A stretch of 64,000 nt of DNA, taken from the NCBI GenBank assembly GCA_002269645.1, contig NIVC01000522.1, positions 486,996-550,995 on the forward strand, read 5' to 3'. The translations under genes were made by a program, and so were the position numbers. Source of the stretch: Macrostomum lignano (Eukaryota). Under the pieces are notes generated by a model. The model made no database searches. It was not told the origin of the DNA and saw nothing but the letters and a program-made list of their open reading frames with translations. Of the stretch, positions 31,765 to 63,966 are shown piece by piece. Within the stretch, counting starts at the first letter, position 1. Every line of letters starts with the position of its first letter.

Positions 31765-32653
31765 GCCCTCCCAGATCCTCAGTTGCTGGGCCAACCGGCC
31801 TCCCAGATCCTCAGTTGCTGGGCCAGCCTCCCAGAGTGTCAGTTGCTAGGCCAGCCTCCCAGAGTGTCAGTTGCTGGGCCAGCCTCCCAGAGTGTCAGTT
31901 GCTGGGCCAGCCTCCCAGATGGCCAGCCTCCCAGATCCTCAGTTGCTGGGCTAGCCTCCCAGATCCTCAGTTGCTGGGCCAGCCTCCCAGATCCTCAGTT
32001 GCTGGGCCAGCCTCCCAGAGTGCCAGTTGCTGGGCCAGCCTCCCAGAGTGTCAGTTGCTGGGCCAGCCTCCCAGATCCTCAGTTGCTGGGCCAGCCTCCC
32101 AGAGTGTCAGTTGCTTGGCCAGCCTCCCAGAGTGTCAGTTGCTGGGCCGCCCAGATCCTCAGTTGCTGGGCCAGCCTCCCGGATCCTCAGTTTCTGGGCC
32201 AGCCTTCCAGATCCTCAGTTGCTGGGCCAGCCTTCCAGATCCTCAGTTGCTGGGCCAGCCTCCCAGATCCTCAGTTGCTGGGCCAGCCTCCCAGATCCTC
32301 AGTTGCTGGGCCAGCCTCCCAGATCCTCAGTTGCTGGGCCAGCCTCCCAGATCCTCAGTTGCTGGGCCAGCATCCCAGATCCTCAGTTGCTGGGCCAGCA
32401 TCCCAGATCCTCAGTTGCTGGGCCAGCATCCCAGATCCTCAGTTGCTGGGCCAGCCTCCCAGATCCTCAGTTGCTGGGCCAGCATCCCAGATCCTCAGTT
32501 GCTGGGCCAGCATCCCAGATCCTCAGTTGCTGGGCCAGCATCCCAGATCCTCAGTTGCTGGGCCAGCCTCCCAGATCCTCAGTTGCTGGGCCAGCATCCC
32601 AGATCCTCAGTTGCTGGGCCAGCATCCCAGATCCTCAGTTGCTGGGCCAGCCT
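31765..32653. repeat. 28-bp minisatellite (CCTCCCAGATCCTCAGTTGCTGGGCCAG)
   Basis: About 31 units. It gives spurious ORFs with a 28-aa period. Confidence 0.96.
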
Positions 32654-33687
32654 AGGTGTTGTCAGTCTGACCTGACTAACTTGCAGTTTTCCTGTTAATC
32701 AATAAAAATTTCTTCATAATTATTATTTGGTTTGGCATGCATGGGACACAAAAAGAAGCAGTTTTTTATCCAAAAGACTGGCATGTTAAAAATAATTATT
32801 TCTATTTTATTTTTATTACAAGTACATTTGCATACTTTCCCTGCAGCTGATTTTCCCGCCAAGTTTTTGCTGGTTGAAACGAAAAAAAAATTATTTATAA
32901 ATTTTTATTTGTATAATTTATTGTTTTTTCATGTCTTCTGAGTAGCTTTTTATATATATTTACATATCTGAGTGCGCAGTATCCAGGCCCAGGTTTAATT
33001 CCAACAATTATTGCATTCGCCTGTTCCTCTGCCCTTTGTCAACAACCAGCTTATTTACATGATTACTAAATCTGTCTGACTCATTCCTTTCCTACTAAAC
33101 TAGTTAAAACACTAGTTAAAATTAATTAATTACGACTGTTTCGCATCAGCGTTCTGTTTTCGATTGCTCATTTGCGGTAATTTATTTTTTTAAAGAAACT
33201 AACAATTAAACAATTGCTTACGCAGAAGAACTTGAAGAAACTTTTTTTTTCTGCTGCTCGTGTCTTGCCGGCCGAGTTGTTTGCAACTGTGTTGGTCTTT
33301 GTTGTCATTTTTTTCACTATGTTAATGCCCCAATGCTTCAGGTATTACGAGGTAGTCCTTGTGAAATAGCGCGGCGCTCTGATGTGCCAGCGGCCCAGGC
33401 TCGATTCCAAGTGCAGTCGCATTAAATTGGGGCTGAATTGGAATCTCGGCTTGGCTCTGCTCGTGCAATTAACGCCCTTGAGGGCCAACCCCCAAGGCAC
33501 AGTGAAGCGTACATGCCTAACGATAAATAAAGTTAGGGCCGCTGTACACTCCTAGGGAAAGTACAGTCCCCTGCCTCTAATTAAAAATACTCTGCTGTCT
33601 TACATTCATGCTTTGCTTATCACCTGTCTACAATTAAATTCATTTTTTAACTACTGACGGCCGTCCAAAAAGGTACAGAGACTCGCT

Positions 33688-39600: not shown

Positions 39601-42600
39601 GGGCTGCGGTGAGGGCTGAAACCGGTTTTCTATGGGGTTTTTAGGCTCCGATTTATTGGCGATTTTTGCAGGACCATCAGAGAGATTTTAATCGAGATCA
39701 GGGTGAGATTTTTATTATGTCAGCTATTCAGAGTTAGGTTGTGAGACAGATTTTGAGGCTACCACAGGGGGAGGTTTTGAGACTGTCAAGGTGAGATTTT
39801 GAGGCCATCAGGTGTGAGATCTTGAGGCTACCATTTTAAGATTTTCAGATCATCACAGGGTGAGATTTTGAGGACATCACAGGGTAAGATTTTGAGACTA
39901 TCATGGTGAGATTTTGGATCTTTCAGGGGCCGGGTGACATCTTGAGACTATCGGGGTGAGATTTTGAGGCTACCATTTTAGGATTTTCAGATCATCACAG
40001 GGTGAGATTTTGAGGCAATCACATGGTGAGATTTTGAGACTATCAGGGTGAGATTTTGAGACTATCAGAGTGAGATTTTCAGGTTGTCACAGGGTGAGAT
40101 TTTGAGGCCACCAGTTTTGAGGCAATTATTGGGCTACAAAAATGATTTTACTATCAAGTACTAAACAATGTGAAACGGCTTGCCTTTAAATCCAATAAAC
40201 CAGCAATTGATTGATAATAAACCGCTCACGCCTCAGGTGCTGTCATCCCTGCTAACAGTCTGTGCAGAGATCTCAATGGGCCTGGTGCCCGGCATCAGAG
40301 TGTGGGACTGGCCCACCACTCTGGTTCGCGGCGTTCTTATCGACTGCTCCTCGGGCCTGCTGCCTCGGCCGGAGGCTCTCATTAGCGTAGCCGAGTCTGC
40401 CGCCTGCATGCGGGCCAACCAGCTGCACCTGTTCTTCCGGTTGGGCAGCACCGCGCACGCCTGTCCGTACGCGCAGGAGGATCTGCGCAGGGTGGTTCGG
40501 TCTGCCCAGGAGCTGTGCCTCACGCCTGTGCTAGCCATTGATATTGGAATTGCAGTGTCAGATTTGACTCAGGTGAGCAAGGAGCTGCTGGCTTAGACCA
40601 TTTAGGATGTCGATAATCCTTCAGTGTCAAGTGGATTTAGGATGTTGATAATCCTTCAGGTTTGAGTAGATTTAGGATGTCGATAATCCTTCAGGTTTGA
40701 GTGTATTTAGAATGTCGATAATCCTTCGGGTTTGAGTGGATTTAGAATGTCGATAATCCTTCAGGTTTGAGTAGATTTAGAATGTCGATAATCCTTCGGG
40801 TTTGAGTGGATTTAGAATGTCGATAATCCTTCAGGTTTGAGTGGATTTAGAATGTCGATAATCCTTCAGGTTTGAGTGGATTTAGAATGTCGATAATCCT
40901 TCAGGTTTGAGTGGATTTAGAATGTCGATAATCCTTCAGGTTTGAGTGGATTTAGGATGTCGATAATCCTTCAGTGTCAAGTGGATTTAGGATGTCGATA
41001 ATCCTTCAGTGTCAAGTGAATTTAGGATGTTGATAATCCTTCAGGTTTGAGTGTAATTAGAATGTCGATAATCCTTCGGGTTTGAGTGGATTTAGAATGT
41101 CGATAATCCTTCAGGTTTGAGTGGATTTAGAATGTCGATAATCCTTCAGGTTTGAGTAGATTTAGGATGTCGATAATCCTTCAGGTTTGAGTGGATTTAG
41201 AATGTCGATAATCCTTCAGGTTTGAGTGGATTTAGAATGTCGATAATCCTTCGGGTTTGAGTGGATTTAGGATGTCGATAATCCTTTAGTGTCAAGTGGA
41301 TTTAGAATGTCGATAATCCTTCAGTGTCAAGTGGATTTAGGATGTCGATAATCCTTCAGTGTCAAGTGAATTTAGGATGTTGATAATCCTTCAGGTTTGA
41401 GTGTATTTAGAATGTCGATAATCCTTCGGGTTTGAGTGGATTTAGGATGTCGATAATCCTTCAGGTTTGAGTGGATTTAGGATGTCGATAATCCTTCAGG
41501 TTTGAGTGGATTTAGGATGTCGATAATCCTTCAGGTTTGAGTGGATTTAGAATGTCGATAATCCTTCGGGTTTGAGTGGATTTAGGATGTCGATAATCCT
41601 TTAGTGTCAAGTGGATTTAGAATGTCGATAATCCTTCAGTGTCAAGTGGATTTAGGATGTCGATAATCCTTCAGTGTCAAGTGAATTTAGGATGTTGATA
41701 ATCCTTCAGGTTTGAGTGTATTTAGAATGTCGATAATCCTTCGGGTTTGAGTGGATTTAGGATGTCGATAATCCTTCAGGTTTGAGTGGATTTAGGATGT
41801 CGATAATCCTTCAGGTTTGAGTGGATTTAGGATGTCGATAATCCTTCAGGTTTGAGTGGATTTAGAATGTCGATAATCCTTCGGGTTTGAGTGGATTTAG
41901 GATGTCGATAATCCTTTAGTGTCAAGTGGATTTAGAATGTCGATAATCCTTCAGTGTCAAGTGGATTTAGGATGTCGATAATCCTTCAGTGTCAAGTGAA
42001 TTTAGGATGTTGATAATCCTTCAGGTTTGAGTGTATTTAGAATGTCGATAATCCTTCGGGTTTGAGTGGATTTAGGATGTCGATAATCCTTCAGGTTTGA
42101 GTGGATTTAGGATGTCGATAATCCTTCAGGTTTGAGTGGATTTAGGATGTCGATAATCCTTCAGGTTTGAGTGGATTTAGAATGTCGATAATCCTTCAGG
42201 TTTGAGTGGATTTAGGATGTCGATAATCCTTCATCATCCCGCCAGAACACGTCGATCCCCAACGCTCCCGCAGGTGCAAAGCCAGGCAGATGTATTGCTA
42301 GGTGCTTTCCCGCCGAACTGCCCGATGCACCTGGGCCCCCGTCTGTCCGCTCACCTGGCCCAGGGCCCTGAACAGGAGGCGCCGGTCTGGCTGGGCCTCG
42401 GCCGGCAGCATCTCTACTTGGCCTCGTCCGGTTTCTCATTGCCGCCCTGGCTGCAGAAACTGCCAATCACCTGCATTGATCACTGCCTGCCCAGAGACCG
42501 GCCCGAGGACCGGGCAACCTATCTGCACTCTGCGCTGCCAGAATTCGTTCTGGCGCCCGCCACAGGCGCGTGGCTGTCGTTCACCGGCTGTCACAGTCTG

Positions 42601-43723: not shown

Positions 43724-43849
43724 GATTAACCCCATCGAATCTGAATTTATCTCTCGAATTTTAACAAGAAATGTTGCAAATTTGTTCAGTTTCAACTGTC
43801 TAAAATCGATGCTCTGGTTTAACAACTTTATTTTATTCTCAACTCTAGC

Positions 43850-44745
43850 ATTCGGGTTTGAGTTCGGGATTGGGTTTGGGTTTGAGTTAATTGGGCTTGG
43901 GTTTGGGTTTGAGTTAATTGGGTTTGGGTTTGGGTTTGAGTTAATTGGGTTTGGGTTTGAGTTTGGGTTTGGGTTTGAGTTAATTGGGCTTGGGTTTGGG
44001 TTTGAGTTAATTGGGCTTGGGTTTGGGTTTGAGTTAATTGGGCTTGGGTTTGGGTTTGAGTTAATTGGGTTTGGGTTTGAGTTTGGGTTTGGGTTTGAGT
44101 TAATTGGGCTTGGGTTTGGGTTTGAGTTAATTGGGCTTGGGTTTGGGTTTGAGTTAATTGGGTTTGGGTTTGGGTTTGAGTTAATTGGGTTTGGGTTTGA
44201 GTTTGGGTTTGGGTTTGAGTTAATTGGGCTTGGGTTTGGGTTTGAGTTAATTGCGCTTGGGTTTGGGTTTGAGTTAATTGGGCTTGGGTTTGGGTTTGAG
44301 TTAATTGGGCTTGGGTTTGGGTTTGGGTTTGGGTTTGGGTTTGAGTTAATTGGGCTTGAGTTCGGGTTTGAGTTCGAGTTAGGGTTTGTGTTCGGGTTTG
44401 GGTTTGAGCTTGGTTCGGGTTTGGGTTCGTGTTTGAGTTAATTGGGCTTGAGTTCGGGTTTGGGTTCGGGTTTGGGTTTGAGTTCGGGTTTGAGTTCGAG
44501 TTAGGGTTTGTGTTCGGGTTTGGGTTTGAGCTTGGTTCGGGTTTGGGTTCGGGTTTGAGTTAATTGAGTTTGAGTTCGAGTTTGAGTTAATTGGGCTTGA
44601 GTTCGGGTTTGGGTTCGGGCCAGAGTTAATTGGGTTTGAGTTCGGTATTGCATTTTACAAGATTGGGTTTGGGTTAACATGGTTTGGTTCGGGTTTGGGT
44701 TTCGGTGATTGGGTTTTGGGTTTGAGTTCAGGTTTGGGTTGATAG
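43850..44745. repeat. (TTTGGG)n-based satellite with GAGTTAATTGGG interruptions
   Basis: Strongly G/T-biased, with an internal 120-bp periodicity (lines 43981 and 44101 are identical). Confidence 0.94.
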
Positions 44746-45634
44746 ACACATGACAGTTGGTAGACCCATAAAGGCAAACTATATTTTAGCATAATTAATG
44801 AGTTATTACCGATTGCTTGATAAAGTTTATCGAGAAAGTTTGTATAATCTGTTAGTGATTGTTAGCCATTGACTCTTCTAGATTAGCCTAGTCCATCCTC
44901 ATAACACACTGTTGGTAATGTTACACTTGCTGCTCTGTTAATTTTAACTTTTTCTCTTTTCCTTCGCTATTCTTAGATGCCAAAATATAGGACGCGTTGA
45001 GTTCTAGTAGTGCACTTTTATTATTATTGCTTATTACTAATATGGTTAACAATGTGTCTCTGGTTAGATCATCAATAGTGTTATTAGCGGCAGTGCCTAT
45101 TTGCTTTTTTAGTCTCTGATAAACTTTCATTTCTTGTTTCGATGCAGAATCATCATATCTGTGAGAGACGCATGCCTGTCTATTTTGCTTCATCTTCAAT
45201 CACTGTTCTGTTGCACATGTCCTTGTACATCTTTTATCTTCTGTTTGACAGCTATTATAGCACTAATTATTGTATCATTATTGTTGTTTCATTTGGTTTG
45301 CTATGCGGCTGTGTTACTTGAGACACCATAAATATTGTGTCTGGTATAGTGCATATGCGCACTGTAAATCAGCTAAGTGTTTATCTTTGCTAGCTTAATG
45401 TTTCTTTTTAGCTCGAGCGCTTTAGCGTTAACTATACTGCTTGTTCGCTTTGCTGGAAAGTTCATATAATTCTATTAGAAGGATGATATAAAATATATAA
45501 TAAAATTAGTGCATTCAGCGCCTAAAAAGTCCTTTAAGTTGAACAAACTAAGCCTATATGCTATTCAATTGTTCTCAATGTCATAGCTTATGTTGAGTTT
45601 TTTGTCTGCAATTTTGAATAATGAATTGGCGCTA

Positions 45635-46947
45635 CGAGGGGTGATCAAAAAGTTCTGCAAGTGACCTCACAACTCAGTGTTACAGCAGTCGAGGCGTCTA
45701 ATCAGTGTCACAGTCTCTCAAAGTACTTTCCACCACTATCTGTGCACCATCGCAATGTACCATGTCTGAAAGCAGTCATGGTACTCCGAAGTTGGTATAC
45801 CCTATGGAGCTGAATGTACCGCTTGGGCAAGGTCTTGTATGCGTGAAAACGGCCTCCCAGAAATGACGGATTTGATCCTCGGGAACAGCCAACAGTCGCA
45901 TGGTGCTAGGTCTAGAGAGTAGGGTGGATGGGGCAGCAGCCGGACCCCCTGCTGCTCCAGGCACGCCATGGTTGAGGCCGCTCTGTGCGGTGCCGCATTG
46001 TCATGGTGCAGCAGGAGTCGAGGTCCATGCCTGGTTCGCGCACGTTCCTGCCGCTCCTGCAGCACGCCTGGCAGAACAGTGTCTGTGTAGTACCTGGCAG
46101 TCACTGTGGCACCCGCTGGAAGGATGCTCACCGATACAACACCCTGAGAGTTGAAAAAAATGGCGAACATCCGCTTCCGACTGCGGAATCCGGTCTTCAG
46201 CACCTTGGGCCTCGGGCTCATCTTCTGCCAGCCAGACCATGTTGGACTGCTTATCCTTCATGGTAAAGAAGGGGATCCAACATTCGTCTCCTGTGATGAC
46301 ATCCGACAGTCGTCGTGGGCCGTGGGGCTCAAACATTTGCAGCCACAAGAGACAGATGCGCACCCTCTCTGCTTGCTGCTCCGGAGTGAGAAGATGGGGT
46401 ACCCACCGAGCGCAGGTCTTTGTGCGGCCCAGTTGCTCATGCATGATGTTATGAGCACTTCCATAGCTGACACCAAGCTCATTGGCAAGGAATCTCAGCG
46501 TAATGCTCCAATCCTCACGAATTATTGCATCGGCATGGGCCACGACATCTTCGGTCACGGATGTCCGGGGTCGGCCAGACCTCGGTTCCTCGTTGAAGCT
46601 ATCCCGGCCTTCCAAGAAATGGCGCAGCCAGCGGGCAACCGTGTCAAATGATGGAGCAGAGTCAGCTAAAACATTCACGAGATCGGTGTGAATCTCAGTC
46701 ACTTTGCAACCAAGTTGCATGCACATAAAGATATAGAAGCGAACACTGTCTTTTGATGTTTCCATCAGCTACTGAAAACACATGGAAAATATATGGCTGT
46801 GAAATTTTACTGGAGCACATTTGAAAGCCAAAAATGCATATAAATATAGCAAACAGATATAGCCGCATATGCGTAAGTTTTTGGCTTTTGCCGATTCTAT
46901 AACTAAAAGCTATAACAAAAGGTTGCAGAACTTTTGATCACCCCTCG
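45635..46947 (-). mobile_element. Mariner DNA transposon (DD34D), defective
   Basis: About 27-bp TIRs CGAGGGGTGATCAAAA(A)GTTCTGCAA with a TA TSD at 45633-34 and 46948-49. Transposase motifs RWVPH, ITGDE, HDNA-34aa-D and YSLDLAPCD. Frameshifts near 46230 and 45800. Confidence 0.95.
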
Positions 46948-46949
46948 TA

Positions 46950-48225
46950 AAATCTAGACTGCAGAGCTAAATTGGCGCTAAAATCTAGACTGAGGAGCTG
47001 AATTGGCGCTAAAATCTAGACTGAGGAGCTGAATTGGCGCTAAAATCTAGACTGCTGAGCTGAATTGGCGCTAAAATCTAGACTGAGGAGCTAAATTGGC
47101 GCTAAAATCTAGACTGAGGAGCTGAATTGGCGCTAAAATCTAGACTGAGGAGCTGAATTGGCGCTAAAATCTAGACTCCTGAGGAATTGGCGCTAAAATC
47201 TAGACTCCTGAGGAATTGGCGCTAAAATCTAGACTCCTGAGCTGAATTGGCGCTAAAATCTAGACTCCTGAGCTGAATTGGCGCTAAAATCTAGACTCCT
47301 GAGGAATTGGCGCTAAAATCTAGACTCCTGAGCTGAATTGGCGCTAAAATCTAGACTCCTGAGCTGAATTGGCGCTAAAATCTAGACTCCTGAGCTGAAT
47401 TGGCGCTAAAATCTAGACTCCTGAGCTGAATTGGCGCTAAAATCTAGACTCCTGAGGAATTGGCGCTAAAATCTAGACTCCTGAGCTGAATTGGCGCTAA
47501 AATCTAGACTCCTGAGCTGAATTGGCGCTAAAATCTAGACTCCTGAGGAATTGGCGCTAAAATCTAGACTGTGAGGCTGAATTGGCGCTAAAATCTAATC
47601 TGCGGCGCTAAAATCTAGACTGTGGAGCTGAATTGGAGCTAAAATCTAGACTGCGGAGCTGAATTAGCGCTAAAATCTAATCTGTGGCACTAAAATCTAG
47701 ACTGTGGAGCTGAATTGGCGCTAAAATCTAGACTGTGAGGCTGAATTGGCGCTAAAATCTAATCTGCGGCGCTAAAATCTAGACTGTGGAGCTGAATTAG
47801 CGCTAAAATCTAATCTGTGGCGCTAAAATCTTGTCTGTGGAGCTGAATTGGCGCTAAAATCTAGACTGAGGAGCTGAATTGGCGATAAAATCCAATCTGT
47901 GGCGCTAAAATCTAGACTGTGGAGCTGAATTGGCGCTAAAATCTAGACTGTGGAGCTGAATTGGCGCTAAAATCTAGACTGAGGAGCTGAATTGGCGCTA
48001 AAATCTAGACTCCTGAGGAATTAGCGCTAAAATCTAGACTCCTGAGCTGAATTGGCGCTAAAATCTAGACTGCAGAGAGCTGAATTGGCGCTAAAATCTA
48101 GACTGCGGCGCTGAATTGGCGCTAAAATCTAGACTGCAGAGAGCTGAATTGGCGCTAAAATCTAGACTGCAGAGAGCTGAATTGGCGCTAAAATCTAGAC
48201 TGCGGCGCTGAATTGGCGCTAAAAT
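46950..48225. repeat. 31-bp minisatellite (GAATTGGCGCTAAAATCTAGACTGAGGAGCT)
   Basis: About 41 units with length variants. Confidence 0.96.
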
Positions 48226-49103: not shown

Positions 49104-51088
49104 ATGCGCAAAAGTACACAAGCTATACTGCCTATGCACTCGGCATTGACCGCGTGTCTGGCGAAGCCCGTGCCATGCCAGCAGCAGGCATCGCCAGTTC
49201 GCTGTCGATCGATGTCTAAGCTATCGAATTCGCGCCTGGCCTTGCGCAGCAACGAGTTCCTTGATTCGTCGCGCAACTCTTCAGCTGGGACAGCCGCCAA
49301 CAGCGGGAATGGAAGCAACGGCAACAGCAGCTTGGAACGGGAGCGCACCAGATCCGTGACCTCCTACTACAACCAGTCCGCTATCGACGCCGCGGCCAAG
49401 AAGAACTCGGTCCGTCTGACCCCGGCCTCGCTGCTGTACTCCGGCCGCGCCACCGACGAGAACTACGTGCTCCGGTCGGCTCAGTACCTGCAGAAGGAGC
49501 TGCCAGTTCGCATCGCCCATCGGATCGACGACTTCCGCTCGCTGCCCTTCATCATCGGCTGCAATCCGACCATCCTGTCCGTGCACGAGCTGTACATCCG
49601 GGCATTCCACATCCTGTCTGACTACCCCACCGTCACCAACTTGGCTGAGGAGGAGCAGTACTCCGGCGTAGTTCGTCAGCTGCTCGACGACCACAAGGAC
49701 GTTGTCACCATGCTAGCCGAGGGCTTCCGCGAGTGCAGCCGGCACATCCGGGATCCGCATCTGGTCAGGCAGTTTCTTGACAAGACCCTGACATCGAGGC
49801 TGGGCATCCGCCTGCTGTGCGAGCACCATCTGGCTCTGCGCCAGGAGCGTCCGGACTTTGTCGGCGTCGTGTGCACCCGGTTCTGCCCTGGCGACCTCAT
49901 CGACAGCCGGGCCGCTCACGTGGCCAAGCTGTGCCAGATGAAGTACGGCCTGGCGCCTGCGGTGAAGATCAACGGCAACAGGAAGGCGGCCTTCTCCTAC
50001 ATCATCCAGCCGGTTGAGTACATCGTTACCGAGGTGCTGAAGAACGCGTTCCGCGCCACGGTTGAGCACAACAGGGCCAAGGTCGGCTCCCTGCCCGAGG
50101 TCACCATCACAGTGGCTAACAATGATGTCGATTTCATTATTCGGTGAGTCTGTACGACTGTATTTGCGTCTTAGGCGCCATTTCTAGCTTCTCTGGCGCC
50201 ATTTCTAGTTTTTCTGACACCATTTTTAGTTTTTCTGGCGCCATTTCTAGATTCTCTGGCGCCATTTTTAGCTTTCCTTGCGCCATTTCTATTTCTTCTG
50301 GCGCCATTTCTAGATTCTCTGGTGCCATTTTTAGCTTCTCTGGCGCCATTTCTACTCTAGCTTCTCTGGCCCTGGCGCCATTTCTAGACTCTGGTGCCAT
50401 TTATAGACTCTCTAGCGCCATTTCTAGACTATCTGGCGCCATTTCTAGACTATCTGGCGCCATTTCTAGACTCTGGTGCCATTTATAGACTCTCTAGCGC
50501 CATTTCTAGACTATCTGGCGCCATTTCTAGACTATCTGGCGCCATTTCTAGACTCTCTAGCGCCATTTCTAGACTCTCCATTGTTCTCGAATTTAAAATT
50601 ATTTCGTAGAATAATTTTCTAGAATAACTTAAGAAGCAGTTTTGAATAGTCTTGGCTGGGTTGCGTGTGTGCGTTCATTCTCACACATTAATCAAAAAGC
50701 GCTAGAAATGTTCGCACTACCCTACTTAAAGTTACCGATGAGTAGAAAAAATAGCGTATAACGGTCTATTTTTGCTAATTACATTAAAATTTGCAGCTTC
50801 AGCGATCGCGGCGGCGGCATTGCGCACGACATCGCGACCAGCATATTTGAGTACCATTTCTCAACTTCCGGCAAGCACAGCGACGAGAATGAGTCGTTCT
50901 TCGACCGGGTCTCCGAGTCCCGTTCGGTGGGCCCGATGCACGGCTTCGGCTTCGGATTGCCAACCTCGCGCGCCTACGCGCACTACCTTGGCGGCCGCCT
51001 CACCTTCGAAACCATGCAGGGTGTCGGCTCGGATTTCTACCTGCGCCTGAGGCATATCGACGGCAAAGGGGACAGCTTCCGCATTTGA
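49104..51088 (+). CDS. BCKDK: Branched-chain alpha-ketoacid dehydrogenase kinase; exons 49104-50143, 50797-51088
   Basis: SYYNQSAID...VRLTP..LLYSG...[17 protein letters not shown]; [12 protein letters not shown]; [12 protein letters not shown]; spliced R|FSDRGGGI; [21 protein letters not shown]. The start codon is uncertain. Confidence 0.94.
50170..50580. repeat. 21-bp minisatellite (TCTGGCGCCATTTCTAGACTC) in the BCKDK intron
   Basis: Directly visible. Confidence 0.93.
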
Positions 51089-51824
51089 GGGTCCTTGGTA
51101 ACCCAGTTCATAATTCACTTCACTTGTCGAATTTTATTAATGACTCACAACTACGGTTTTTTAAAAACGAAATTTAACAACAGAAGACAGCACAAACTGG
51201 CATGTTAATTCCACCAATAATCGATTTGATTCCGTATTAAAACTGTATCAGTGATTAATTATCCAAATCGTCAGGTAATTGAGCACTTTCTTATTTGTGC
51301 TATATTATTTTCGCTTGAATTTCTTCATTCTCTGTTCTAAAAGCTGTTTCTTCATTTAAAATTCGTTTCTTCTGTTATACTACTTACTTAGATCGTTGTT
51401 AGCAGTAGTCAGGTTTGCGTGTTCAGAGAGTCTCAATTCCTGTCTGCCTACCTGGCTGCTCCAGCCTCAAATTTATCAAGCCTGGTCAGTCAACTCGCGC
51501 CTGACTTTACAAATTTTTAACCTTTGCTCTCATTTAGGCTCCTCTGTTTACCCGCGTTGCTTATGGTGATGTGGTCTCTGTTTTTGTTATCGTGAGGGCA
51601 ATTCCATTGCTTAAACTCTGCCATAGCTGAAAAAAATCATTAATATATTCCAGTCACTCAAAATTACTTTCTAGCAGTGCTGTAATCTTCCGTTATTATT
51701 GTAAAGCTTCAAAATATTACAATAATACAATAGTAGATTGCATGTAGGTAGAAACTCTTCAAACTTGATCAAAGGCTTTATAGTAGAAGGCATGAGGGGG
51801 CTTCTGGGACAAAATTTTTCACCT

Positions 51825-52036
51825 CCTCCATAATCCCATTAAATCCATCCATATTATCCCTGACAGAATCAGAAAAAAAGGGGGGTCGCACTCGCTCCGA
51901 AAACGTCCTCCATAATTCCATTAAATCCATCTATATTATCCCCGACAGAATCAGAAAAAAGGGGGGTCGCACTCGCTCACAAAACGTCCTCCATAATCCC
52001 ATTAAATCCATCCATATTATCCCTGACAGAATCAGA
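51825..52036. repeat. 81-82 bp subterminal tandem repeat (2.6 copies)
   Basis: CCTCCATAAT.CCATTAAATCCATC.ATATTATCCC.GACAGAATCAGA begins at 51825, 51907 and 51988. Confidence 0.9.
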
Positions 52037-52247
52037 GCATAACAGGTGTCCTACTTGTTCCGAAAACTTCAAACATAATCCCATTATAATCCACTGACAT
52101 CCACCCATAGCATATTCGAAACAATCAGAAAATAATCTGCATTCTTCTCCCCACATTCAATCCGCAACGTGCTACCACATCCCTAAGACTTTAAATCATC
52201 AGCGCAGGGTCCTTACCCTTTGAAAAAAAATTAAATTCTCAATAAAA

Positions 52248-52764: not shown

Positions 52765-53628
52765 TCACATTCTCTCAATGATTAACGTCAATACAAACTC
52801 TTCCCCATTAAAATCAACACCCACCCCATCTTCAGTCTCAAACTGTAGCACAATCTCGTGAATCTCCTTATTACTCAATACAACTCTTTTCACTGGATTT
52901 GGTTTCTCTACCACCATCTGTCCTCCAGCTACAGAGTTGGAGATATTGTACAAAATATTCGTTCGCTTTCCCTTAAATACCCAATCAAGACTGAGATTAG
53001 TTCTGATTAGAATATTCAAACCCTTTACAATGTCTGCTATATTGGGTGCTAAGAACAAACCGCGTACACTTTCCCGGGCCATGCTAACGGTCCCCAATGC
53101 TTGAGTGGCAGTCCGCGCCGCGGATTCTGCCTTATAAACTTTCTTCTCGAATCCCAGTTCCCTATACCAAGTGTCATCTTTAAACTCAACCTCCGCATCT
53201 TTGTGAACTTGCATGACCACTCTCATTACAGTGAGATCATAGGTTAGTTTGACAGGGAACAGTTTCTTCTCTGGCTTACTCGCATCAGGTGTCTCAAAAT
53301 GGCCTCTCTTAGTAAAGACATTTTCTAGAAAGTTATTGTAGGTATCCACACTTTGCGTGCTCACATGGAATACCACAGGGTCTGCTGCTGCACCTTTCCA
53401 TTTGTAATAAAACTTATTATTTGCTGCCATCACATTGGGAACGTTTGACCAACCAGTGAAGTCGTTAAGATAGACATGGTAATTAGCGCCTGGATCCAGG
53501 CGAATCGCCTGCTCTAATTTTTCAACAAACATCCCGTTTGAGTCATTAATTCGCCCAGTTATTGTAATAGGAATGCTCTCCTTGGAGTGTGAAATAATAT
53601 TATTTAGTCTTTCAGCAATCGCTTCCAT
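52765..53628 (-). CDS. Polinton minor capsid protein (penton, single jelly-roll)
   Basis: C-terminus NILYNISNSVAGGQMVVEKPNP...EIHEIVLQFETEDGVGVDFNGEEFVLTLII matches the Polinton penton pattern. It sits directly downstream of the MCP. The probable ATG is at 53628 (AAAAATGG). Confidence 0.8.
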   Translation of the reverse strand: MEAIAERLNNIISHSKESIPITITGRINDSNGMFVEKLEQAIRLDPGANYHVYLNDFTGWSNVPNVMAANNKFYYKWKGAAADPVVFHVSTQSVDTYNNFLENVFTKRGHFETPDASKPEKKLFPVKLTYDLTVMRVVMQVHKDAEVEFKDDTWYRELGFEKKVYKAESAARTATQALGTVSMARESVRGLFLAPNIADIVKGLNILIRTNLSLDWVFKGKRTNILYNISNSVAGGQMVVEKPNPVKRVVLSNKEIHEIVLQFETEDGVGVDFNGEEFVLTLIIERM

Positions 53629-53652: not shown

Positions 53653-54925
53653 TTAAACTTTACTGGATGAATTGTTGATCATGTTAAGCTTCACCTTCCT
53701 CTCAAATGCATAGATAATGTACAAGTCCACGGGTGTTGCGTCAGTCCTCTCAATGTTAGTCACGATATTCACAGGGCTGTTATCAGTAGGCATTTGTCTG
53801 GCAGACACATCAGCGCCAAACATTGGATATAGAGTTCCATATTGAAGAGCTGTGATAGCAATTCCGTTGTTCTCTTTCACAGCCAAGTCGACCAACTCGC
53901 TGTAAAATTTGCTAATCTTGTTCTGACTGAAATTTCCATTTTGTGGCAGTGCAGGGTAAAGATTATCACTGATTTCATGCTGAATGGACCGCACGTCTCC
54001 ATGCGTGTAGCGTATAATGCTATTTGGGTTTCTCATATTAATAATGATATACCTTGGATTGCTGCATGATCCCTCTTTGATGCAGATGTTTGTTCTAGTT
54101 TCGTTTCGCTCATCTCGACACATGTAGGCCGTGTATGCAACATCAATGTCCTTCTCTATTGCCTTAAGATAGTCTGCTTTTAGTGCAGTCTTTGGCTCAA
54201 TGACTTCCAAATACAGCTCGATTCCGGTTAGCTTCACCTCCATCCTTGTGTGGTCCGCCCCAGTCCACAACACTCTACTGCGATCATCTCTAGTCAGTCT
54301 AAATGTGTAGCTAAAGTTACTAGTCAGTCGATTAAATTTATTACAGAATCCACTCATAAATCTCAGTGGTACAAATACATCAACAGACCGATACAGCGGG
54401 TTTTTAGCAGCATCATCAGCACCTTGCAATGCATAGTTGTATCTCTTCTTCCTCTTTTTATAGCCACTGTCATTGATGTCTCCTTCTTTTTCATCTGCAA
54501 TAAAACCCGCACCACTTCCCAACTGAATAAAATCAGGATTCTCGATCAAACAATGAGCGTCATAGACAATTCCAAAGTTGGCGATTCGCTCCAACTCAGT
54601 GCTCCCATTCGATACACTAAACTCCTTGAACATGTACGCCCAAAAGTTACTGATCAGAGCCACATCCGCATCATGCTTGTCAACGTTAGCACGAGCCGCA
54701 TCCGCACCACCTTTTGTCTTGAATTGAAATGTCATATGGAAGCCGCTCTTAAGACTGTGCACACTAACCAGAGACGACAAATGTCAGTGTTTGACCTGGA
54801 CCCAAATTAGTTTCATTCTGGTTCTCGTGACTCGGAACTCTAACTTGTGTCGCTTTGATTGTGCTATCATCACTCAAAATAGGCTTGTTAATTTTGTAGA
54901 AAACTGGTGTCAGTGGGTCGTTCAT
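53653..54925 (-). pseudogene. Polinton major capsid protein (double jelly-roll), one frameshift near 54770
   Basis: From ATG 54925 it reads MNDPLTPVFYKINKPILSDDSTIKATQVRVP...GQTLTFVVSG, then shifts into the 53653..54780 frame (NFWAYMFKEF...FVPLRFMSGFC...IELYLEVIEP...YIIYAFER). Size and beta-rich motifs fit the Polinton MCP. Confidence 0.8.
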
Positions 54926-54956: not shown

Positions 54957-56193
54957 ATGAAGCGGAAAAGTACACAGCAGATATCTGAATTGGAGAAGCT
55001 AGCACAAGCAGAGAAACGAGTTACCGGGCTAATAAATAAGGAGCAACAATCCTACAATGAGTTTGTCCAAGCAGCTACAGAGTTTCATAAACCCGGGTAT
55101 GGAGAAGCTAAGAAAAATATTGATCAGGTCAAAGAAACTATCGACGACATACAGGAAACCCAAGTGCAAAAGGCTTTGGGCAAAATTCCAGAAGCACCAC
55201 AGATACAACCGCAACCACAGACACAACCGCAACCACAACAATCACAACCACAACAATCACAACCACAACAGCAACTAAAAGTGACAGATAACATTTTTGG
55301 ACCAGTAGAGCGTGTCGAACATGATGGGAAATATGTATTTGGAATAAGTATGTGGAGAAAAAACATTTATAATGAACCAGTGGAATATTATATCGACATA
55401 AATAAGGAAAATATTTCTGTTGTCAAAGGCTCAGAAGCTATGAAAATTCCTTTCACAGAAACCTTACTGACTTTTATGACCAAGAACCAAGAGAGAATCT
55501 CGGACAAACAGCTAAAGAACTATAGAGATCTAGTGACTTTTGCTCTTGCTAGAGATATAGCAATACTAAAGGCCCCAGAAGTCCTGAGACTTATGTATGA
55601 TAACGGTGTCAACCTGACTAGATTCAAAAAGTACAATCACTTTAAACAATGGTTCGATTTGCCAGATCAGGCGGAAGTCATAAAATATCTAGAACAACAG
55701 CAACAGCAACCACAACAACAACAGCAACCGCCACAACAGCAGCAACATTCCACAGAAGAACAAGTACTTAGTCAACTCGAGCAGTTAGACCCTTTGAAAG
55801 TAGCTGAATATAAAAATGATCACCCAGATGCCTGGCAACTCTTAGAACAACACTCTCCAGATCGAATGAACAGAATCAAGCAAAGAGTTTTCACACCTCA
55901 ACAAAGACAGGCGCCACATGACAGTTCCATCTCTGAAAGTGAGCAGTCTTTTGCATCACCTCCCCAGCAGCCACAAGCCCAACCAACTCCACAACCTCAA
56001 GACCAACGCCTCAACTGGAAAAGGAATAGCTGAAATCTACAAGCGAGTAGCGGTTCTTCTAGGAGCAGCAAAGACCGGAATGAAAGATGAGAATAGAAAA
56101 GAGTTCGTTCACATCCTCAATAAAATGCTTGAGAGAAAATACATCGATAAGAGGGCGAGAGAGCTTCTGCTTTCGCGGTTTAACAAAAAATAA
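54957..56193 (+). CDS. Polinton Gln-rich protein; probably frameshifted into the 55918..56193 frame
   Basis: 358-aa ORF with two Q/P tracts. The overlapping frame supplies TGKG..IYKRVAVLLGAAKTG...EFVHILNKMLERKYI, resembling a helical C-terminal motif seen in Polinton proteins (recalled, not searched). Confidence 0.65.
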
Positions 56194-56209
56194 ATTTCTA
56201 TTTAAAAAG

Positions 56210-56587
56210 ATGCCACTTATTTTCGAAAAAGACATTGACAAATACTATGACAAAGAGGAACTTAATCTCATTAAACGCGGATCTGGACTTTTCCCTGCAG
56301 GCCACTATCCAAGAAAAGAACGCTCAGGGAACGGTCTTGCCGATTTGATCGCTCAGGGGGCCAAGATTTTTAAGGTCATTGGAGAGAACAAAGAGAACAT
56401 CAAGAACGTTGCCGAAGCGGCTGGCAGTGTAGCCACAGCAGCCAAAAAGATAAAGGAGACTGTAACACCTAAACAAGAGATTCAACCGCTGGCTCCGCTG
56501 GCCCCAAATCCAGACAATGTGGACCCTGCAGTCTATGAGAAGATGAGAGCTAGCATTAAAAAGGGAAGCGGTTTCAAATTTGACTAA
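56210..56587 (+). CDS. Polinton small basic protein with GxG motifs and an amphipathic helix (putative core/membrane-active protein)
   Basis: ATG at 56210 (AAAAAGATG); RGSGL, RSGNGLADLIAQGAKIFKVIG, KKGSGF. Confidence 0.65.
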   Translation: MPLIFEKDIDKYYDKEELNLIKRGSGLFPAGHYPRKERSGNGLADLIAQGAKIFKVIGENKENIKNVAEAAGSVATAAKKIKETVTPKQEIQPLAPLAPNPDNVDPAVYEKMRASIKKGSGFKFD

Positions 56588-56635: not shown

Positions 56636-56735
56636 TGAAATGACACATCTAAGTCCCAAAATGACACATCTAAGTCCCAAAATGACACATCTAAGTCCCA
56701 AAACGACACATTCAAGTCCCGAAATGACACATCTA
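56636..56735. repeat. 21-bp tandem repeat (AAATGACACATCTAAGTCCCA), about 5 copies, upstream of the ATPase
   Basis: Directly visible. Confidence 0.9.
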
Positions 56736-56774
56736 AATGATTTATTATTTAATTTTTTTTCAATCATAGAAAAA

Positions 56775-57560
56775 ATGGACTTCTCAAACGACTTCAATCC
56801 TCACTGGACGCGTAATCAGATTAAGTTTTCTCATCACGAGTCAATTCCGAGTCATTTCAGATGCATTGTTGTTGGTTCATCAGGTTCAGGTAAAACATTC
56901 AGAGTCTTTAACATGCTTCTTAGACCTGGCTTTATCGACTATGACACTCTGCACATCTACTCTCCCACACTGTATCAAGATGAGTATAGAATGTTGATTG
57001 CAGGGTTTCAAAACAAGCTGAACAAAGAGGACATTATTGCATGTTTTAATAACCAAATAAGCCTTCCCAGTAACCCAGAAATTGTAGCTGCTGAATATTC
57101 AAAGCACCTCAAAGACAATGAAAAATGGCAGAACATTAAAGTGTTCACCTATGGAGATCCACAGGCTGATCCAAAGACCAAACTTCTACCCCAACCAGAT
57201 GAGCTAGAAAAGGGGAGAAAGCATTTGATCGTCTTTGATGATTGTATGACAGGCCCACAGAAGCAGATAGAAAACTATTTTACAAGAGGACGACATAACA
57301 ATTGTAATGTAATTTACATTGCACAGAACTGGTTCGAGCTCCCGAACAAAACAATTCGTGGGAACTGCAATCTGATTCTCCTGTTTCCAACCATTCCACA
57401 GGACAGGTTAAAAAGATTTTACAATGAGGTCATTGCGCCTGCCTATTTCATAAATCCAACAAAAAACTCAAGCAGAAAGATTTCACAGAGGAATTCGTTA
57501 ATCTTTGCTATGACAAGTGGAATCAGCCTTACCAGTTTGTGATTATCAGCAAAGAAAAAA
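56775..57560 (+). CDS. A32-like (FtsK/HerA) DNA-packaging ATPase; C-terminus frameshifted
   Basis: Walker A GSSGSGKT, Walker B LIVFDD, FTRGRH, YIAQNW, IRGNCN. Confidence 0.93.
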
Positions 57561-58440: not shown

Positions 58441-59030
58441 ATGGATGCTCAAAATTCTCTTTATGATCCGAACGCTCCCACAACACCTAGTGCACCTAGT
58501 GCACCCCAATATGAGCAACAAAAACTCTACCCCGTCATTACTTGTAACTCTCAACAGTTTCGACTAGTGGAGATTCAAAAAATGCGCGATGATCTTGAAA
58601 AAAATATTTTCCACAACACAAAGAAAATTAAGCGCTATGACAACCACTGTAAATTTTTCGACTACAGCAATATGATTCTAGGATCTGTGTCTGTTCTATC
58701 TGGATCTGCTGCAGCTGTCTCAGTGTTGCCAGTCATCACAGCCCCAATCGCAATCCCGCTCGGCTCTGTGGGTGCTGCATGTGGACTTATTTCAGCAATT
58801 ACTGGAGCATTAGCGCGAAACAGGCGAAAAAAACTAAAGCAGCTACAGGAGAAGCAAGTAAAAGAGAAAGGGGTGCACACTCAATCATAGGGTACATTTC
58901 AAGGGCAATCGAGGATAAGTTCATTTCAGAGGATGAGTTCAAAACCATTCAGGATCTTTATGAACAATCAATTCGAATGAACTTGAACATGGTCGGTACT
59001 GATGACATGAGTCAGCTGAGAAATGAACTC
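58441..59030 (+). CDS. Polinton membrane protein (GasderminX-like), frameshifted near 58870
   Basis: N-terminal PSAPSAP and LYPVI; FRLVEIQKMR; KKIKRYD; about 48-aa hydrophobic G/A-rich segment; continuation SIIGYISRAIEDKFISEDEF. The family name is from recalled similarity only. Confidence 0.7.
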
Positions 59031-59098
59031 GAGAAAGTTCTTCAACATTATGTGGAAAGAAGGACAACGAGAAGACAACGAGAAATGCACAATGAACC

Positions 59099-59497
59099 CT
59101 ATGAAACACAGCGAATAATTTCCTTGTAGGTCTTTCGTGTTTTGGTCATTGCATACAAAACAGTCATGCACAGCTCACCGCAAATATCACTGCTAAGACC
59201 TTGGAGAATAAAGTCTGAGCGATAAATTTTTTTATTATTTTTTCCCTTCATATAATTTCTTAGCTCTTCTGGTACTGCCGTCCCATAGCTATCGAAGTAA
59301 TAACACTTGTGCTTGCGATCGGGATCAATCACCCAGCAAACCCAATGAGATCCTGGCTTATCGGTGGTGTCAAAGTTCATGATGCCGCATTCTTTTCTTA
59401 GAGGAAAATCAGGCAGAGTGTCCCTCATAAATATTCCTCTAAAGTTTGGGATTTCCAGTTCGTTAGCCAAATCTTCAAGAAAGTTATTTGTCGTCAT
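59099..59497 (-). CDS. Adenain-like cysteine protease
   Basis: FRGIFMRD, GIMNFD...GSHWVC, YFDSYG, Q...SDICGELC (H-D-Q-C catalytic set). Confidence 0.93.
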   Translation of the reverse strand: MTTNNFLEDLANELEIPNFRGIFMRDTLPDFPLRKECGIMNFDTTDKPGSHWVCWVIDPDRKHKCYYFDSYGTAVPEELRNYMKGKNNKKIYRSDFILQGLSSDICGELCMTVLYAMTKTRKTYKEIIRCVS

Positions 59498-59546: not shown

Positions 59547-62500
59547 CTAACCTCCATAACCTAATACTCCTAACCTCCTAACTCCACCTCCTAAACCTAA
59601 TCTCCAGTGCCCGAACGGTAGACTGTTGATATTGTCATCAAAAATGAATCTCTTGTTATCTGCACCTGACAGTCCAATCTTCTTTTGCTGAATTGTGTGA
59701 ATAATATGGTTTTTAGATTGTAGCTTTGAGAACTCATGTGATGTCTTTTTGTTGCAATTCAAGGCGTCTCTGTATTCAGCTTCATTAATTTCCTTCCTAA
59801 CACACGTTTCGGAATTCCCTTTGATTTTTTATTGGGTCTGACGACTCACATTTTATAAAATAGGACTTTGCTCTCAACCCAATGAATTCAGTGATTATGT
59901 CACCAGCAATCTCGTCCTTCATTTTCCCAATCACTTTCTTGTTAGTGGCGTCAAACACTTGATCGCCATTCTGTGTCCTGCAAGATTCATCATACTCAGA
60001 CAAGTCAAACAAATCTTTTTGCTGCAGCATGTCCTGATAAATGTCTTCTGTTTGAATGTCCATAATAAAACTGTCTGTGTCAGTGTACAAGAGTTTCATT
60101 TTATCCTTGTACTGCTGCTTCATGCCATAGAAGAACTGGTACATCAGACGTTTTGATTCGTCGAGAACAGTGACACCTGTATAGATCGGCTTGCGCAGCG
60201 TCACCTTGGTTTTGTAAAATATGATCACACCTAAGTAGCTATTAAAGATATGGAGTTCTTTGAATGTTGGCTTTGACATATTTGCCTGAATAACATCAGG
60301 CTCTGATGAGGTAACAAGTTTCAGGTTTGTTCTTTTCCGCTCATTCTCAAGAGTCTTGCCATAGACAGAGTTGTTGGCCAACTTAAAGAGGTTCTTGTCA
60401 AAGTCGTTGGTTGCTTTGGTCCTAAACTGGGTGTTCTTATCAATGTAGGGTTTCATCCACGCTTCCTCTGTAAATGTAAGAGCCCTGTGAACTTTGGTGA
60501 CCCTGCAACCAAGTGAGATAAAATACTGAAGCAGTTTGTAATGGATTTTGTAACGTGTCTTGTTGTTTAGATTCTGTGTTAGTTTCTCTGTATGTTCTTT
60601 TTCTGTTCCTGACAGTGCCAAGTTCCATTATTATCATTGGGAGTTTCGATTATTTTCGGGCACTTGATGTTCTCTGGGAAGGGTGGAAAGTCAGAGAAAT
60701 AGTCGTGAAGCTCTGGTGGAATGTAAACATCAACCTCATAAATGGCAGCCAATGAAAAGTCCCACTTTGTTCTGATGAGGGTAGCCATCGAAAATCTCTA
60801 ACTGGAAGATCTTGACTCATCGCCCACCCGTAGAGATTATTAGCGTCCAAGTAAGTAATGTAGTTTGAGGGCTGCTCCTTATTGTAAGATTCAATGTAGG
60901 GATTGTTTGCTTTTGCATACCTGTTAACGCAAATTGAGATTCCCCCTCGCTTTGACGATTCGACAAAATTGTACATGTCAATGTCTGTAAGAAGTTCAAT
61001 GTACCAATCTGGATCTTGATCCCATTTCATTTTAAGCAAAGATTCCCAGCTAGTGGCAGGCAGAGACACATAATGTGCTGGATCGAGGCCATATGCTGTG
61101 TACCAGGTGTATCTGAAGGTTTCAAACACATCGGCCAGCAGAAACACATCTGTGAAGAGGTAAAGCAGGTGATACTGGAAGAAGTTTTGACAATTAAAGT
61201 AATTATAGACATGCTTCGCGTGCTCATAGTCTTTGTCAGAGATTCCAGAGTCTGTTAGCTTTGAAAAGAACTTCTCCTGTGGTGGTAAACCTTCTTCAAA
61301 TACGTGATACCAGTAATATTTTCATAGGGGTAGAAGCCTTTGGTTCTCAGGAGTTTAAATGATTCATCAGTGTTGTTAATTTTACTTGCAAACATCTTTG
61401 TATATGTACATTGTTCATCTTTTAGATTCTTGCTTAGTTCGTCTAGACTGGCAGCTAGAAATTGATATGAATCCTTCAGTCTTATTTTACCTGTACCCGA
61501 ATTATCCTGTTTAATATCAACACACTTAAACTTCTCCTTGTTCTCTGCGATGCAATCAAGGTGTATGTCTGGAATCATGCCGATTTTTTCAACTATTAAA
61601 TGCATGTCATAGTTCTTTGCGTTGTGACAAAATATCGTTAGATCATGAATGTTCGATTTTAGCTTTAGATTACAGGTGTTATGCGCTGCACCTCTAAATT
61701 TCCCAGTAAAGTGGCAGTGGTCCCTAACGGTGGGTTTTTAATATTAGTGCAAGTTAAATGTTTCCTGCAGATGTGCATTGAGTTGCTGATAGGAAATTGC
61801 TTTCATCCTCCTCAGTCATCATTATTGGAACAGGTTGAAGGGTGCTAATCACTTTTTGCAACTCTAACATTCTGGCAATAAACTGCTCCACACACTGCTC
61901 TCCAAAGAAATAATTATACTCAACAAGTCCTTTTGTAGTAATAAAGGCATATGCTACTGATTGGGACATGTTTTTGAGTTTGAGTTTGTTTTGAGTTTCT
62001 GGCACGATTGAGCATTCGAAATCAGCATATAAACAAATGGGAGCTTCTCCATCTTGTGATAGTTCTTAAAACGGAGATACTTCTCTTCAGCTGAAGGAAG
62101 AAGCAGTTTGTTGGGTGATCCTCGCATGATAATTCATGCTCTGTTAGCTTTTTCAAAGCGTTCAGCAGTCACTGTAATGCTTAAGGCACAAGCGGCAGAT
62201 GGCAACAGCCTCGTGATGATTATTCAACTGCTTGTGAATGAGTCTTGAAAGATCTTTAATCCAAACATAGTGAGCCTCCTCTAGTAAATTACCAATCACT
62301 AGAAGATCCACTTCAGTCCGCCTTTTCCCCTCAGGATCTAAAACGTCTTTGCTACATCTGACCGGTTGAACTTTCTCAGTTTTTTCACTCCACTCAAAGA
62401 CTGTGATTCTAATTTTGTTATTAAACACTTCTTCTAGCTTTGGGATCTGAGAGATGCCAAGCCTCCTTTGTCAAACCTGATTCCCTTCTTTTCGCATTCG

Positions 62501-63392
62501 ATGAGATAGTAGTTGAAATAATTTTGATAATTTGAGGTTCTTTCGCGGTGGTGTGGGACACTAAAAAGTGCAGAAAGAACTGCCCATAGAGCACAGCAAT
62601 TGTCTTTATTTTTAACATTTATGCAAGCTTTTTTGCCGGCTAGCTTATGGGAGCTCTATATAAGAGGAGGCTTTAAGTGGGTCATATTTCATGACCATGA
62701 CAGTCGCTCTTTGAATCCCTCCACGACCCATCCGGAACCTCTGGATGTAAACGCTTCAATTTTCTTATTGACATCTTGAAGGAAAGGATCCAGTGTGTCT
62801 GTTGGGGTGAATGGCTTTGCCTTTGTTGTCATGTAATACTCGAGATGCTCAGTGGGTTTTGCAGGCATATAAAACGCAATCTTGAATGATATCTGTAGTT
62901 TAAAGGTCTTGCGTGTTTTGAGTGTGGTGATCAACAACTGATTGGATGCTGTCTTTATAGTCGTAGATGTTTGCGGTGGTCTGCTTATGGGATTGTGTAC
63001 TCTATGTAATGTTCTGTAAACTTCCTCTGTGCAAAATTAATCTCTTCATGGCAAGCTCCGACTCTTTTAAATGGATTAATTGCTCTAATTTCTCTTGTTC
63101 CTGCTTATTTTGTGGGTACTTTGCTTTTTCACCAGTGAGAGTTTCGTAATTTGTTAACTAAGTTGCGACTCCTCTCTTGGTGTTCCTTTGCAGGATTTTT
63201 TATAGGCACATACTGGTTGGATTCTAATTGATTGATGATTTCCAACTGTTTTTCATAGCTTCCCAGGTGACCAGGGTCGGTGTTTGAACTTTTGTTTGCA
63301 TGCTTCTCTTAGTAAATTACTTTTGTCTTGAAATGAGACGCCTTTTGAAAAATTTTGTTGACTAAATCTTTTGCTGGATTAGCTTTTGGCAT
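59547..63392 (-). pseudogene. polB: Protein-primed family B DNA polymerase with an endonuclease VII-like insert; many frameshifts
   Basis: EAFTSRGSGW; YLRFKNYH; YADFECS; CHIC...VRDHCHFTGKFRGAAHNTCNL; CHNAKNYDMH; LKDSYQF; LRTKGFYPY; YLDANNLYGWAMS; KLANNSVYGKT; YTDTDS; FIGLRAKSY; NKR...SLPFGH. Probable start at 63392 (AAAAAAATGCC). Confidence 0.95.
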
Positions 63393-63534: not shown

Positions 63535-63966
63535 GTAAACCCAGCATTGTGCAGTGTCATGATGGCTTTGACAATGTCAGACTTGCTTACAGAATTTTCA
63601 TGCTCACAATCATCACGATCGGGGCAGCCTCTCCTGCCTTAATTGTTATACCTTTGTCTCTTGCAATCTTTTGCAATTCAAGCTGGTGGGCTCTATCATT
63701 ACCAGCTTTAACAGCAGTTGCTACACCTCCAGCTACACCACCTGCGGCACTTACAGCGCCTGCAATGATCGGGAATAAGAGCTGCTAATGGTAGGATTCC
63801 TCCTGACTTTTCATCTGTGATGCTGTGTCTTTGTTCATTACACTGAAGTATTTGCTGCGTGGGATCGATTTTTACTTTGCACCTTTAATTGATATAATAC
63901 CTGCGTTTCTTTGATTCAATGATTTTATTGAGTTTATTGATGGTTACTGGTTTCAATCTTTGTCAT
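63535..63966 (-). pseudogene. PZ/cupiennin-like Polinton protein, frameshifted
   Basis: Minus-strand frame EKSGGILPLAALIPIIAGAVSAAGGVAGGVATAVKAGNDRAHQLELQK matches the conserved GGxLPL...GG..GGVA..V motif of Polintons (recalled). AAAAAATG at 63966. Confidence 0.65.

Follow-up and report, generated by a model that had tools for sequence, protein, structure and literature searches.

A predicted SLATT-like membrane hairpin protein of animal Polintons and iridovirus-like viruses carries conserved candidate ALIX- and TSG101-binding motifs

A predicted membrane hairpin protein encoded by a Polinton of Macrostomum lignano carries in its N-terminal tail two kinds of short motif that are conserved among its homologs, and that probably bind the host ESCRT machinery, with ALIX as the main partner and TSG101 as an auxiliary one. 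The gene lies in the 64,000-nucleotide stretch of DNA that we analysed (the window), in which a preliminary description had pointed out the motifs. For the family as a whole we lean towards a budding-type role, namely the non-lytic release of membrane-wrapped particles. A more far-reaching reading, which we put forward as tentative, is that the SLATT-like family of animal Polintons and invertebrate iridoviruses (2649 representatives) may be a dedicated ESCRT-recruiting egress factor, and that Polintons may be quasi-enveloped and exit without lysis. The motifs would indicate which machinery is bound, not for what purpose.

The tail of the window gene contains PSAPSAP and LYPVI exactly where the preliminary description had placed them (Table 1). 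The disordered N-terminus that it had described ahead of a coiled segment and a long hydrophobic hairpin is borne out by an AlphaFold2 model and by the uncharged stretch at residues 75–125. The extent of the gene needed correction, since the tail is intact but the window frame is broken after 149 aa: the open reading frame from 58441 meets a stop at 58890, and the conserved C-terminal part continues in another frame. A single open frame from the tail to the C-terminal box is found in 29 of the 30 best loci of the source genome, the exception being the window copy. This genome holds at least 151 matches to the gene, and unbroken sibling copies have an overall length of about 204–239 aa; the Arg/Thr-rich C-terminus (L001–L030) differs in length through short repeat slippage. 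In four sequencing runs that we guessed to be RNA, a contig over the frameshift site differs from the window by one gap, so that the break may be private to the window copy, or an assembly error. The whole element is evenly covered by contigs in these four runs, in a way that makes transcript and DNA inseparable for a high-copy element, and none of the sequencing runs containing the element is recorded as RNA.

Shuffling of the window tail alone gives chance probabilities of 0.018 for P[ST]AP, 0.007 for the YP motif and 0.0001 for both. Two PSAP copies are present, as first described, but inspection of the DNA identifies the doubling as a duplicated 9-nt unit that arose by slippage and is not conserved; tails of unbroken siblings have 1–4 P[ST]AP copies, with S and T interchanging. 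The survey of sibling tails covered 90 loci of the source genome, with the anchor motif in 82 and 47 distinct tails. Twelve loci with an apparently motif-less tail were rechecked, and all 12 have the motif just upstream, before the break or an earlier start. A second family in the source genome was considered and rejected, its members being broken copies of the hairpin-protein family. The third short motif, NSLY, is kept in the near clade (source-genome copies and P0004–P0015, except P0009) despite the divergence of the remaining tail.

Table 1 Features of the hairpin-protein gene and of the surrounding element in the window
Feature	Position	Strand	Basis or remark
SLATT-like hairpin membrane protein gene, 5' part, 149 aa	58441..58890	+	frameshifted near 58880–58890
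Same gene, 3' part in another frame, conserved C-terminal box	58896..59129	+	alignment
NSLY, third short motif	58453..58464	+	near-clade alignment
PSAPSAP, residues 16–22: two overlapping P(S/T)AP (TSG101-type) motifs	58486..58506	+	duplicated 9-nt unit
LYPVI, residues 29–33: YPx(L/I) ALIX-type motif, most conserved feature of the tail	58525..58539	+	sequence, homolog conservation
Long first helix, residues 37–94: coiled-coil-like start, basic patch, first hydrophobic segment	58549..58722	+	AlphaFold2
51-residue uncharged hairpin, residues 75–125, basic residues on both sides	58663..58815	+	sequence; membrane hairpin predicted
Probable left end of element: AGTAG start, imperfect internal repeats	51782..52120	.	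sequence
Minor capsid protein, probable	52765..53628	-	position and size; no significant Pfam match
Double jelly-roll major capsid protein	53653..54735	-	Pfam DJR-like E 5.1e-6
A32-like packaging ATPase	56640..57542	+	Pfam Pox_A32 E 4.9e-6
Adenovirus-type cysteine protease (C5), convergent neighbour	59099..59497	-	Pfam
Protein-primed DNA polymerase B, several pieces	59797..63036	-	DNA_pol_B_2 E 0.003
Piece of separate pX-bearing gene	63587..63784	-	matching sibling ORF: Adeno_PX E 8.9e-7

The AlphaFold2 model, built with a 143-sequence alignment (mean pLDDT 85.9), leaves residues 1–36 without secondary structure; helices 37–94 and 101–159 form a long hairpin, followed by two shorter helices. 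Two adjacent hydrophobic windows occur in 137 of the 150 homologs analysed, and the protein is predicted to be a membrane hairpin of two helices, of which both ends would be cytosolic, given the basic flanks and the positive-inside rule. Both the sequence and the model agree with the arrangement typical of SLATT proteins, a helical hairpin whose two hydrophobic helices lie next to each other. In Foldseek, the top matches are uncharacterised invertebrate iridovirus proteins (S6DF61, A0A068QKD3 and A0A5B8RH66; E 7e-7 to 7e-5); nine of the 50 rows are viral proteins with a SLATT label (E 0.001–0.15, best TM 0.58, in a comparison where long helices match easily). Among the 143 members, Pfam SLATT_1 matches 5 weakly (best E 0.002), DUF4231 matches 2, and the RTX N-terminal hydrophobic domain matches 28 weakly (best E 3e-5). 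We describe the family as SLATT-like, and not as a firm SLATT member. Against the PDB, Foldseek gave no match at E ≤ 0.001, and VIA-align returned BAR domains and other coiled coils with Z up to 11.4, which the tool itself rates as uninformative for helical bundles. When PDB sequences were searched with the profile, all matches had E ≥ 0.018; they pair lysine-rich C-terminal helices with the N-terminal helices of large clostridial toxins, and we take them as compositional.

The likeness to pore-formers mentioned in the preliminary description appears to be one to SLATT proteins rather than to gasdermin. GasderminX is defined by similarity to the gasdermin C-domain together with a pX-like domain (PMC8502044; this and the other papers are cited from the parts of their text that were available). 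We rejected this identity because the definition requires the pX-like domain, which here is in a different gene of the element. No Adeno_PX match was obtained in P0003 or among the families listed, and no similarity to the gasdermin C-terminal domain appears among the matches listed in the profile and fold searches, where absence from a list is non-excluding.

To follow the motifs among homologs, an exhaustive profile search was performed, which gave 2649 representatives at E ≤ 0.001; the best 150 of these 2649, each from a separate 50%-identity cluster, were analysed, and the counts of homolog tails refer to this set. The conservation check proposed in the preliminary description gave YPx[LIV] in 123 of the 150 tails, compared with 4.7 expected from shuffled tails, and P[ST]AP in 65, compared with 0.9 expected. 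Both motifs are present in 59 tails and neither in 21, of which 12 are shorter than 10 aa and possibly truncated; P[ST]AP is missing from 85. Outside the tails, YPx[LIV] occurs in none of the 150 proteins and P[ST]AP in one. These counts suggest that the main motif of the family is the ALIX-type one, and that PSAP is auxiliary. The 2499 weaker homologs beyond the best 150 may lack the motifs. As the search profile included the tail, the homolog listing leans to motif bearers; scoring with a tail-less core leaves 119 proteins above the cut-off of the list, with YPx[LIV] in 93 and P[ST]AP in 48, a subset that is an approximation of a blind sample. Word-indexed searches gave 129 proteins, 113 of them from one clade, and all were recovered by the tail-less core profile. 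Across 11 clusters at 70% core identity, P[ST]AP is present in 9 representatives (0.08 expected) and the YP motif in 10 (0.11 expected).

Within the motifs the key residues are fixed, and the remainder of the tail is free. Position 2 of PxAP is S in 42 cases, T in 23 and another residue in 4, and the residue preceding [ST]AP is P in 65, A in 12 and another in 3 (P or A in 77 of 80). In the YPx motif, x takes 15 different residues, and position +3 is L (100), I (13), V (12) or another residue (7). When all 4-letter patterns in 138 tails were counted without guidance, YP.L (100 vs 2.4) and P.AP (68 vs 5.5) came out on top. The tails are otherwise unalignable, with variable spacing and either motif in front (PSAP first in 33, YP first in 26). 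A rough FastTree tree of the core, with 79 proteins, gives 12 switches of order, compared with a shuffled mean of 23, which indicates that the order is inherited, yet has flipped repeatedly. Order flips, a free x and fixed key residues fit motifs that are read by a partner, rather than motifs belonging to a folded structure. PPxY, a possible third late-motif class, is found in a minority of 9 of the 150 tails (among P0180–P0326). Regarding the distribution of the family, two of the 30 homologs checked by identity gave an organism name, both cnidarian, and the Atlas neighbours fall in mollusc, Preplasmiviricota and Nucleocytoviricota clusters, which are leads only. Genomic context covers the source-genome copies and the NCLDV clade described next; for distant homologs none was found in the viral or metagenome contigs searched.

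The motifs were also recovered blindly. A DNA pattern made from the C-terminal core box alone was searched against IMG/VR, and identified 13 viral loci, 12 of them with a homologous ORF, among which P[ST]AP is present in 11 and YPxL in all 12. In the extended NCLDV clade, with 20 loci and 19 full ORFs, the corresponding numbers are 17 and 19 of 19, while a control of 164 other ORF starts in the same loci has P[ST]AP in none and YPxL in 3. These homologs align with 30% identity over 165 columns, form one lineage, and have K or R, not a hydrophobic residue, before YP. Their neighbours include XRN, MSV199, dUTPase, A22, Pif1, topoisomerase II, NAD ligase and VLTF3, which, together with the fold matches, points to invertebrate iridoviruses. 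A scan with the motif string alone picked up 6 viral loci, none of which is related to the core. An unrelated giant-virus ORF (L092:934 onward, + strand) has a tail end with PSAPPLYPM, and the pair may recur in further NCLDV proteins. A vertebrate iridovirus, tiger frog virus, buds via ESCRT, with an ASAP motif bound by Tsg101 (PMC4880917, in the text available).

The Polinton origin proposed at the outset is supported by the double jelly-roll capsid protein, the A32 ATPase and the C5 protease, all over the Pfam cut-off, by the pieces of protein-primed DNA polymerase B, and by the far-side genes of a sibling element. The DNA_pol_B_2 scores (E 4.5e-4 in the sibling) are under the curated cut-off because the polymerase gene is in pieces. 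The hairpin-protein gene lies between the ATPase and the convergent protease, and a protease-type motif is found on the strand opposite to it in all 30 of the source-genome loci considered. The left end was placed at 51782 by AGTAG, which we take to be the Polinton terminus motif; the contig stops at the end of the window, and the right end of the element is beyond it. The sibling, on contig C33, displays the far side, with a pX-bearing ORF, a separate parvovirus-type PLA2 (E 2e-13) and an ORF (L164:5801-6451) that by eye has an integrase-like motif but no Pfam match. The ORFs of the window element and of the C33 sibling include no recognisable fusogen.

Several other features of the window were observed. 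The capsid protein carries LYPAL and LYPMF (53961 and 53832, - strand), probably in the jelly-roll core; hepatitis A virus uses capsid YPxL motifs. A 166-aa ORF at 56087-56587 (+) has glycine-rich motifs, an amphipathic-looking helix and no Pfam match, and by eye is possibly a "cupiennin"-type membrane-active gene of adintoviruses. A host gene similar to branched-chain/pyruvate dehydrogenase kinase (49104-51089, +; BCDHK_Adom3 E 4e-45) is separated by about 700 bases from the left end of the element that follows it, and a broken mariner-type transposase with Mos1 HTH domains is present at 45802-46765 (-). The host DNA also contains tandem arrays with units of 8–35 nt, at 8382-9400, 16351-17100, 31818-34400, 40460-42100, 43773-44750 and 46886-48100.

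The source genome contains genes for both candidate partners. A TSG101 UEV domain is encoded at 3 loci (E 7e-39; against human TSG101, E 1e-44), and an ALIX-type V domain is encoded in pieces on separate exons. Two putative PTAP-pocket positions are not the same in the host UEV as in human TSG101, a point against the ESCRT reading. The TSG101 gene (C629/C1162/C1163) and the ALIX-type gene (C3039/C2509/C1209) each have three near-identical loci, which suggests a partly triplicated genome or assembly. TSG101 is the established partner of P(T/S)AP and ALIX that of YPxnL, two motifs that are frequently used together (PMC8402826), and YPx[L/I] is a motif accepted by PalA/ALIX (PMC3346829).

In the mechanism that we propose, the hairpin would insert in a membrane with both ends in the cytosol, and the YPx(L/I/V) and P(S/T)AP motifs of the tail would bind host ALIX and TSG101, which in turn would direct ESCRT scission to whichever membrane harbours the hairpin protein. 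The C-terminal helices may link to the capsid, by analogy with orbivirus NS3, and progeny particles would then bud out without lysis, wrapped in membrane. This mechanism would apply to the family, the window copy itself being broken. Since no fusogen was seen, the wrap would be of the quasi-envelope kind. The separate PLA2 of the sibling element provides another candidate for entry, which weakens an entry role for the hairpin protein. Envelopment has been suggested for nematode Polintons, which carry a fusogen, and is presented as an open question for other Polintons (PMC10748475).

The strongest alternative, though in our view an unlikely one, is that the motifs bind ESCRT in order to manage a SLATT-like pore (a viroporin), either through multivesicular-body sorting or shedding, which would time or limit the damage, or by tying up ALIX and TSG101 so that repair fails and the cell lyses. 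The SLATT labels and the weak RTX matches described above are in its favour, as are the proposals that viral SLATTs act as endosomal-escape pores (PMC12220804) or serve abortive infection or exit by lysis (10.64898/2026.10.13.758929). A viroporin activity is also possible for NS3 (PMC6949946), so that pore and budding roles can coexist. What argues for budding is that two motif classes in one short tail are the pattern of budding proteins (PMC8402826).

It is improbable, in our estimate, that ESCRT is instead bound for an internal membrane step, such as crossing or resealing of the nuclear envelope, formation of an inner virion membrane, or endosome escape at entry. The gene is also found in NCLDV-type viruses, which have inner membranes, and Polintons integrate in the nucleus; against this, ESCRT-III at the nuclear envelope is recruited by LEM2/CHMP7 rather than by TSG101, and for entry the sibling element offers two other candidates, a separate PLA2 and a pX-bearing protein. 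We likewise give little credence to the motifs being real but binding another partner, either a viral capsid protein or a different host reader of proline motifs. Of the 132 YP sites, 25 have V or I instead of L at +3, and more than half of the tails among the best 150 of 2649 lack PSAP; nonetheless, two independent motifs each match a known adaptor of one pathway, with the reported S/T, P/A and L/I/V tolerances, and both are retained in viruses whose gene content differs greatly. Finally, the suspicion, voiced in the preliminary description, that the motifs are chance products, here of a Pro/Ala/Ser-rich, slippage-prone tail, is refuted for the family by their conservation (123 and 65 of the best 150 of 2649, vs 4.7 and 0.9 expected) and by the motif-blind recovery, and holds for the tandem doubling only, in which a slipped 9-nt unit is present in 1–4 copies in siblings.

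If the more far-reaching reading of a dedicated egress factor is correct, it would account for the spread of integrated elements between cells and hosts that are left alive, and a pore-type domain of bacterial defence systems would have been reused as an NS3-like budding adaptor. The motif pair would also assign a specific role to a widespread and uncharacterised viral family that has hitherto been interpreted as a pore. A motif pair on a membrane protein opens the question of Polinton exit to peptide-binding and knock-down tests, and the invertebrate iridovirus homologs offer a cultivable system. Late-domain use is already known, including in non-enveloped viruses and in a vertebrate iridovirus. 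Among the papers listed in searches of openly accessible articles and preprints, none connects Polintons, viral SLATTs or iridescent viruses with ESCRT motifs; in the portions of text available, ESCRT is not mentioned in PMC8502044, PMC12220804 and PMC11161782, nor in 10.64898/2026.06.19.733378, 10.64898/2026.10.13.758929 and 10.64898/2026.09.30.755861.

Compared with known systems, the tail has the features of late domains, with P(S/T)AP/YPxnL in a segment predicted to be disordered and with motifs that are conserved and independent of position. The closest parallel in layout is NS3/NS3A of bluetongue virus, which is non-enveloped. This small protein has two TM segments, late motifs near its N-terminus, PSAP among them, a coiled-coil, basic patches next to the membrane and a C-terminal part, and it connects the capsid to ESCRT so that particles are released without lysis (PMC6949946). 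NS3 pairs PSAP with PPxY (NEDD4), whereas in the Polinton family YPxL is dominant and PPxY is limited to the 9 tails mentioned above; binding is proven for NS3, and for the Polinton family it is suggested by the motifs. Homology is not supported by Pfam Orbi_NS3 (3 of 20 members, best E 0.043) or by Foldseek (NS3 at E 0.12), and we consider the likeness an analogy. Retroviral Gag combines the same motif classes (HIV p6 PTAP and LYPxnL, EIAV p9 YPDL, MLV PSAP and LYPAL; PMC8402826), but there the late domains are on the capsid precursor, whereas the Polinton motifs are on a separate membrane protein. The iridovirus proteins that are the top fold matches probably share the motifs, as judged from the IMG/VR clade, which differs in having K or R before YP in place of the hydrophobic residue of LYPVI. 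Adintovirus GasderminX is a membrane-active accessory gene located near the protease in adintovirus maps (PMC8502044), a position like that of the hairpin gene, but it has a pX-like domain, for which the hairpin protein has no match. Viral SLATT proteins of Polintons, PLVs and NCLDVs have the same helical hairpin with two hydrophobic segments, and a "SLATT" gene, compared here by label only, is marked in cnidarian adintovirus maps of Hydra and Stylophora elements (PMC8502044 supplement Fig. S2). The available text of the papers on viral SLATTs proposes pore roles without ESCRT (PMC12220804, 10.64898/2026.10.13.758929), whereas the Polinton family carries ESCRT-type motifs.
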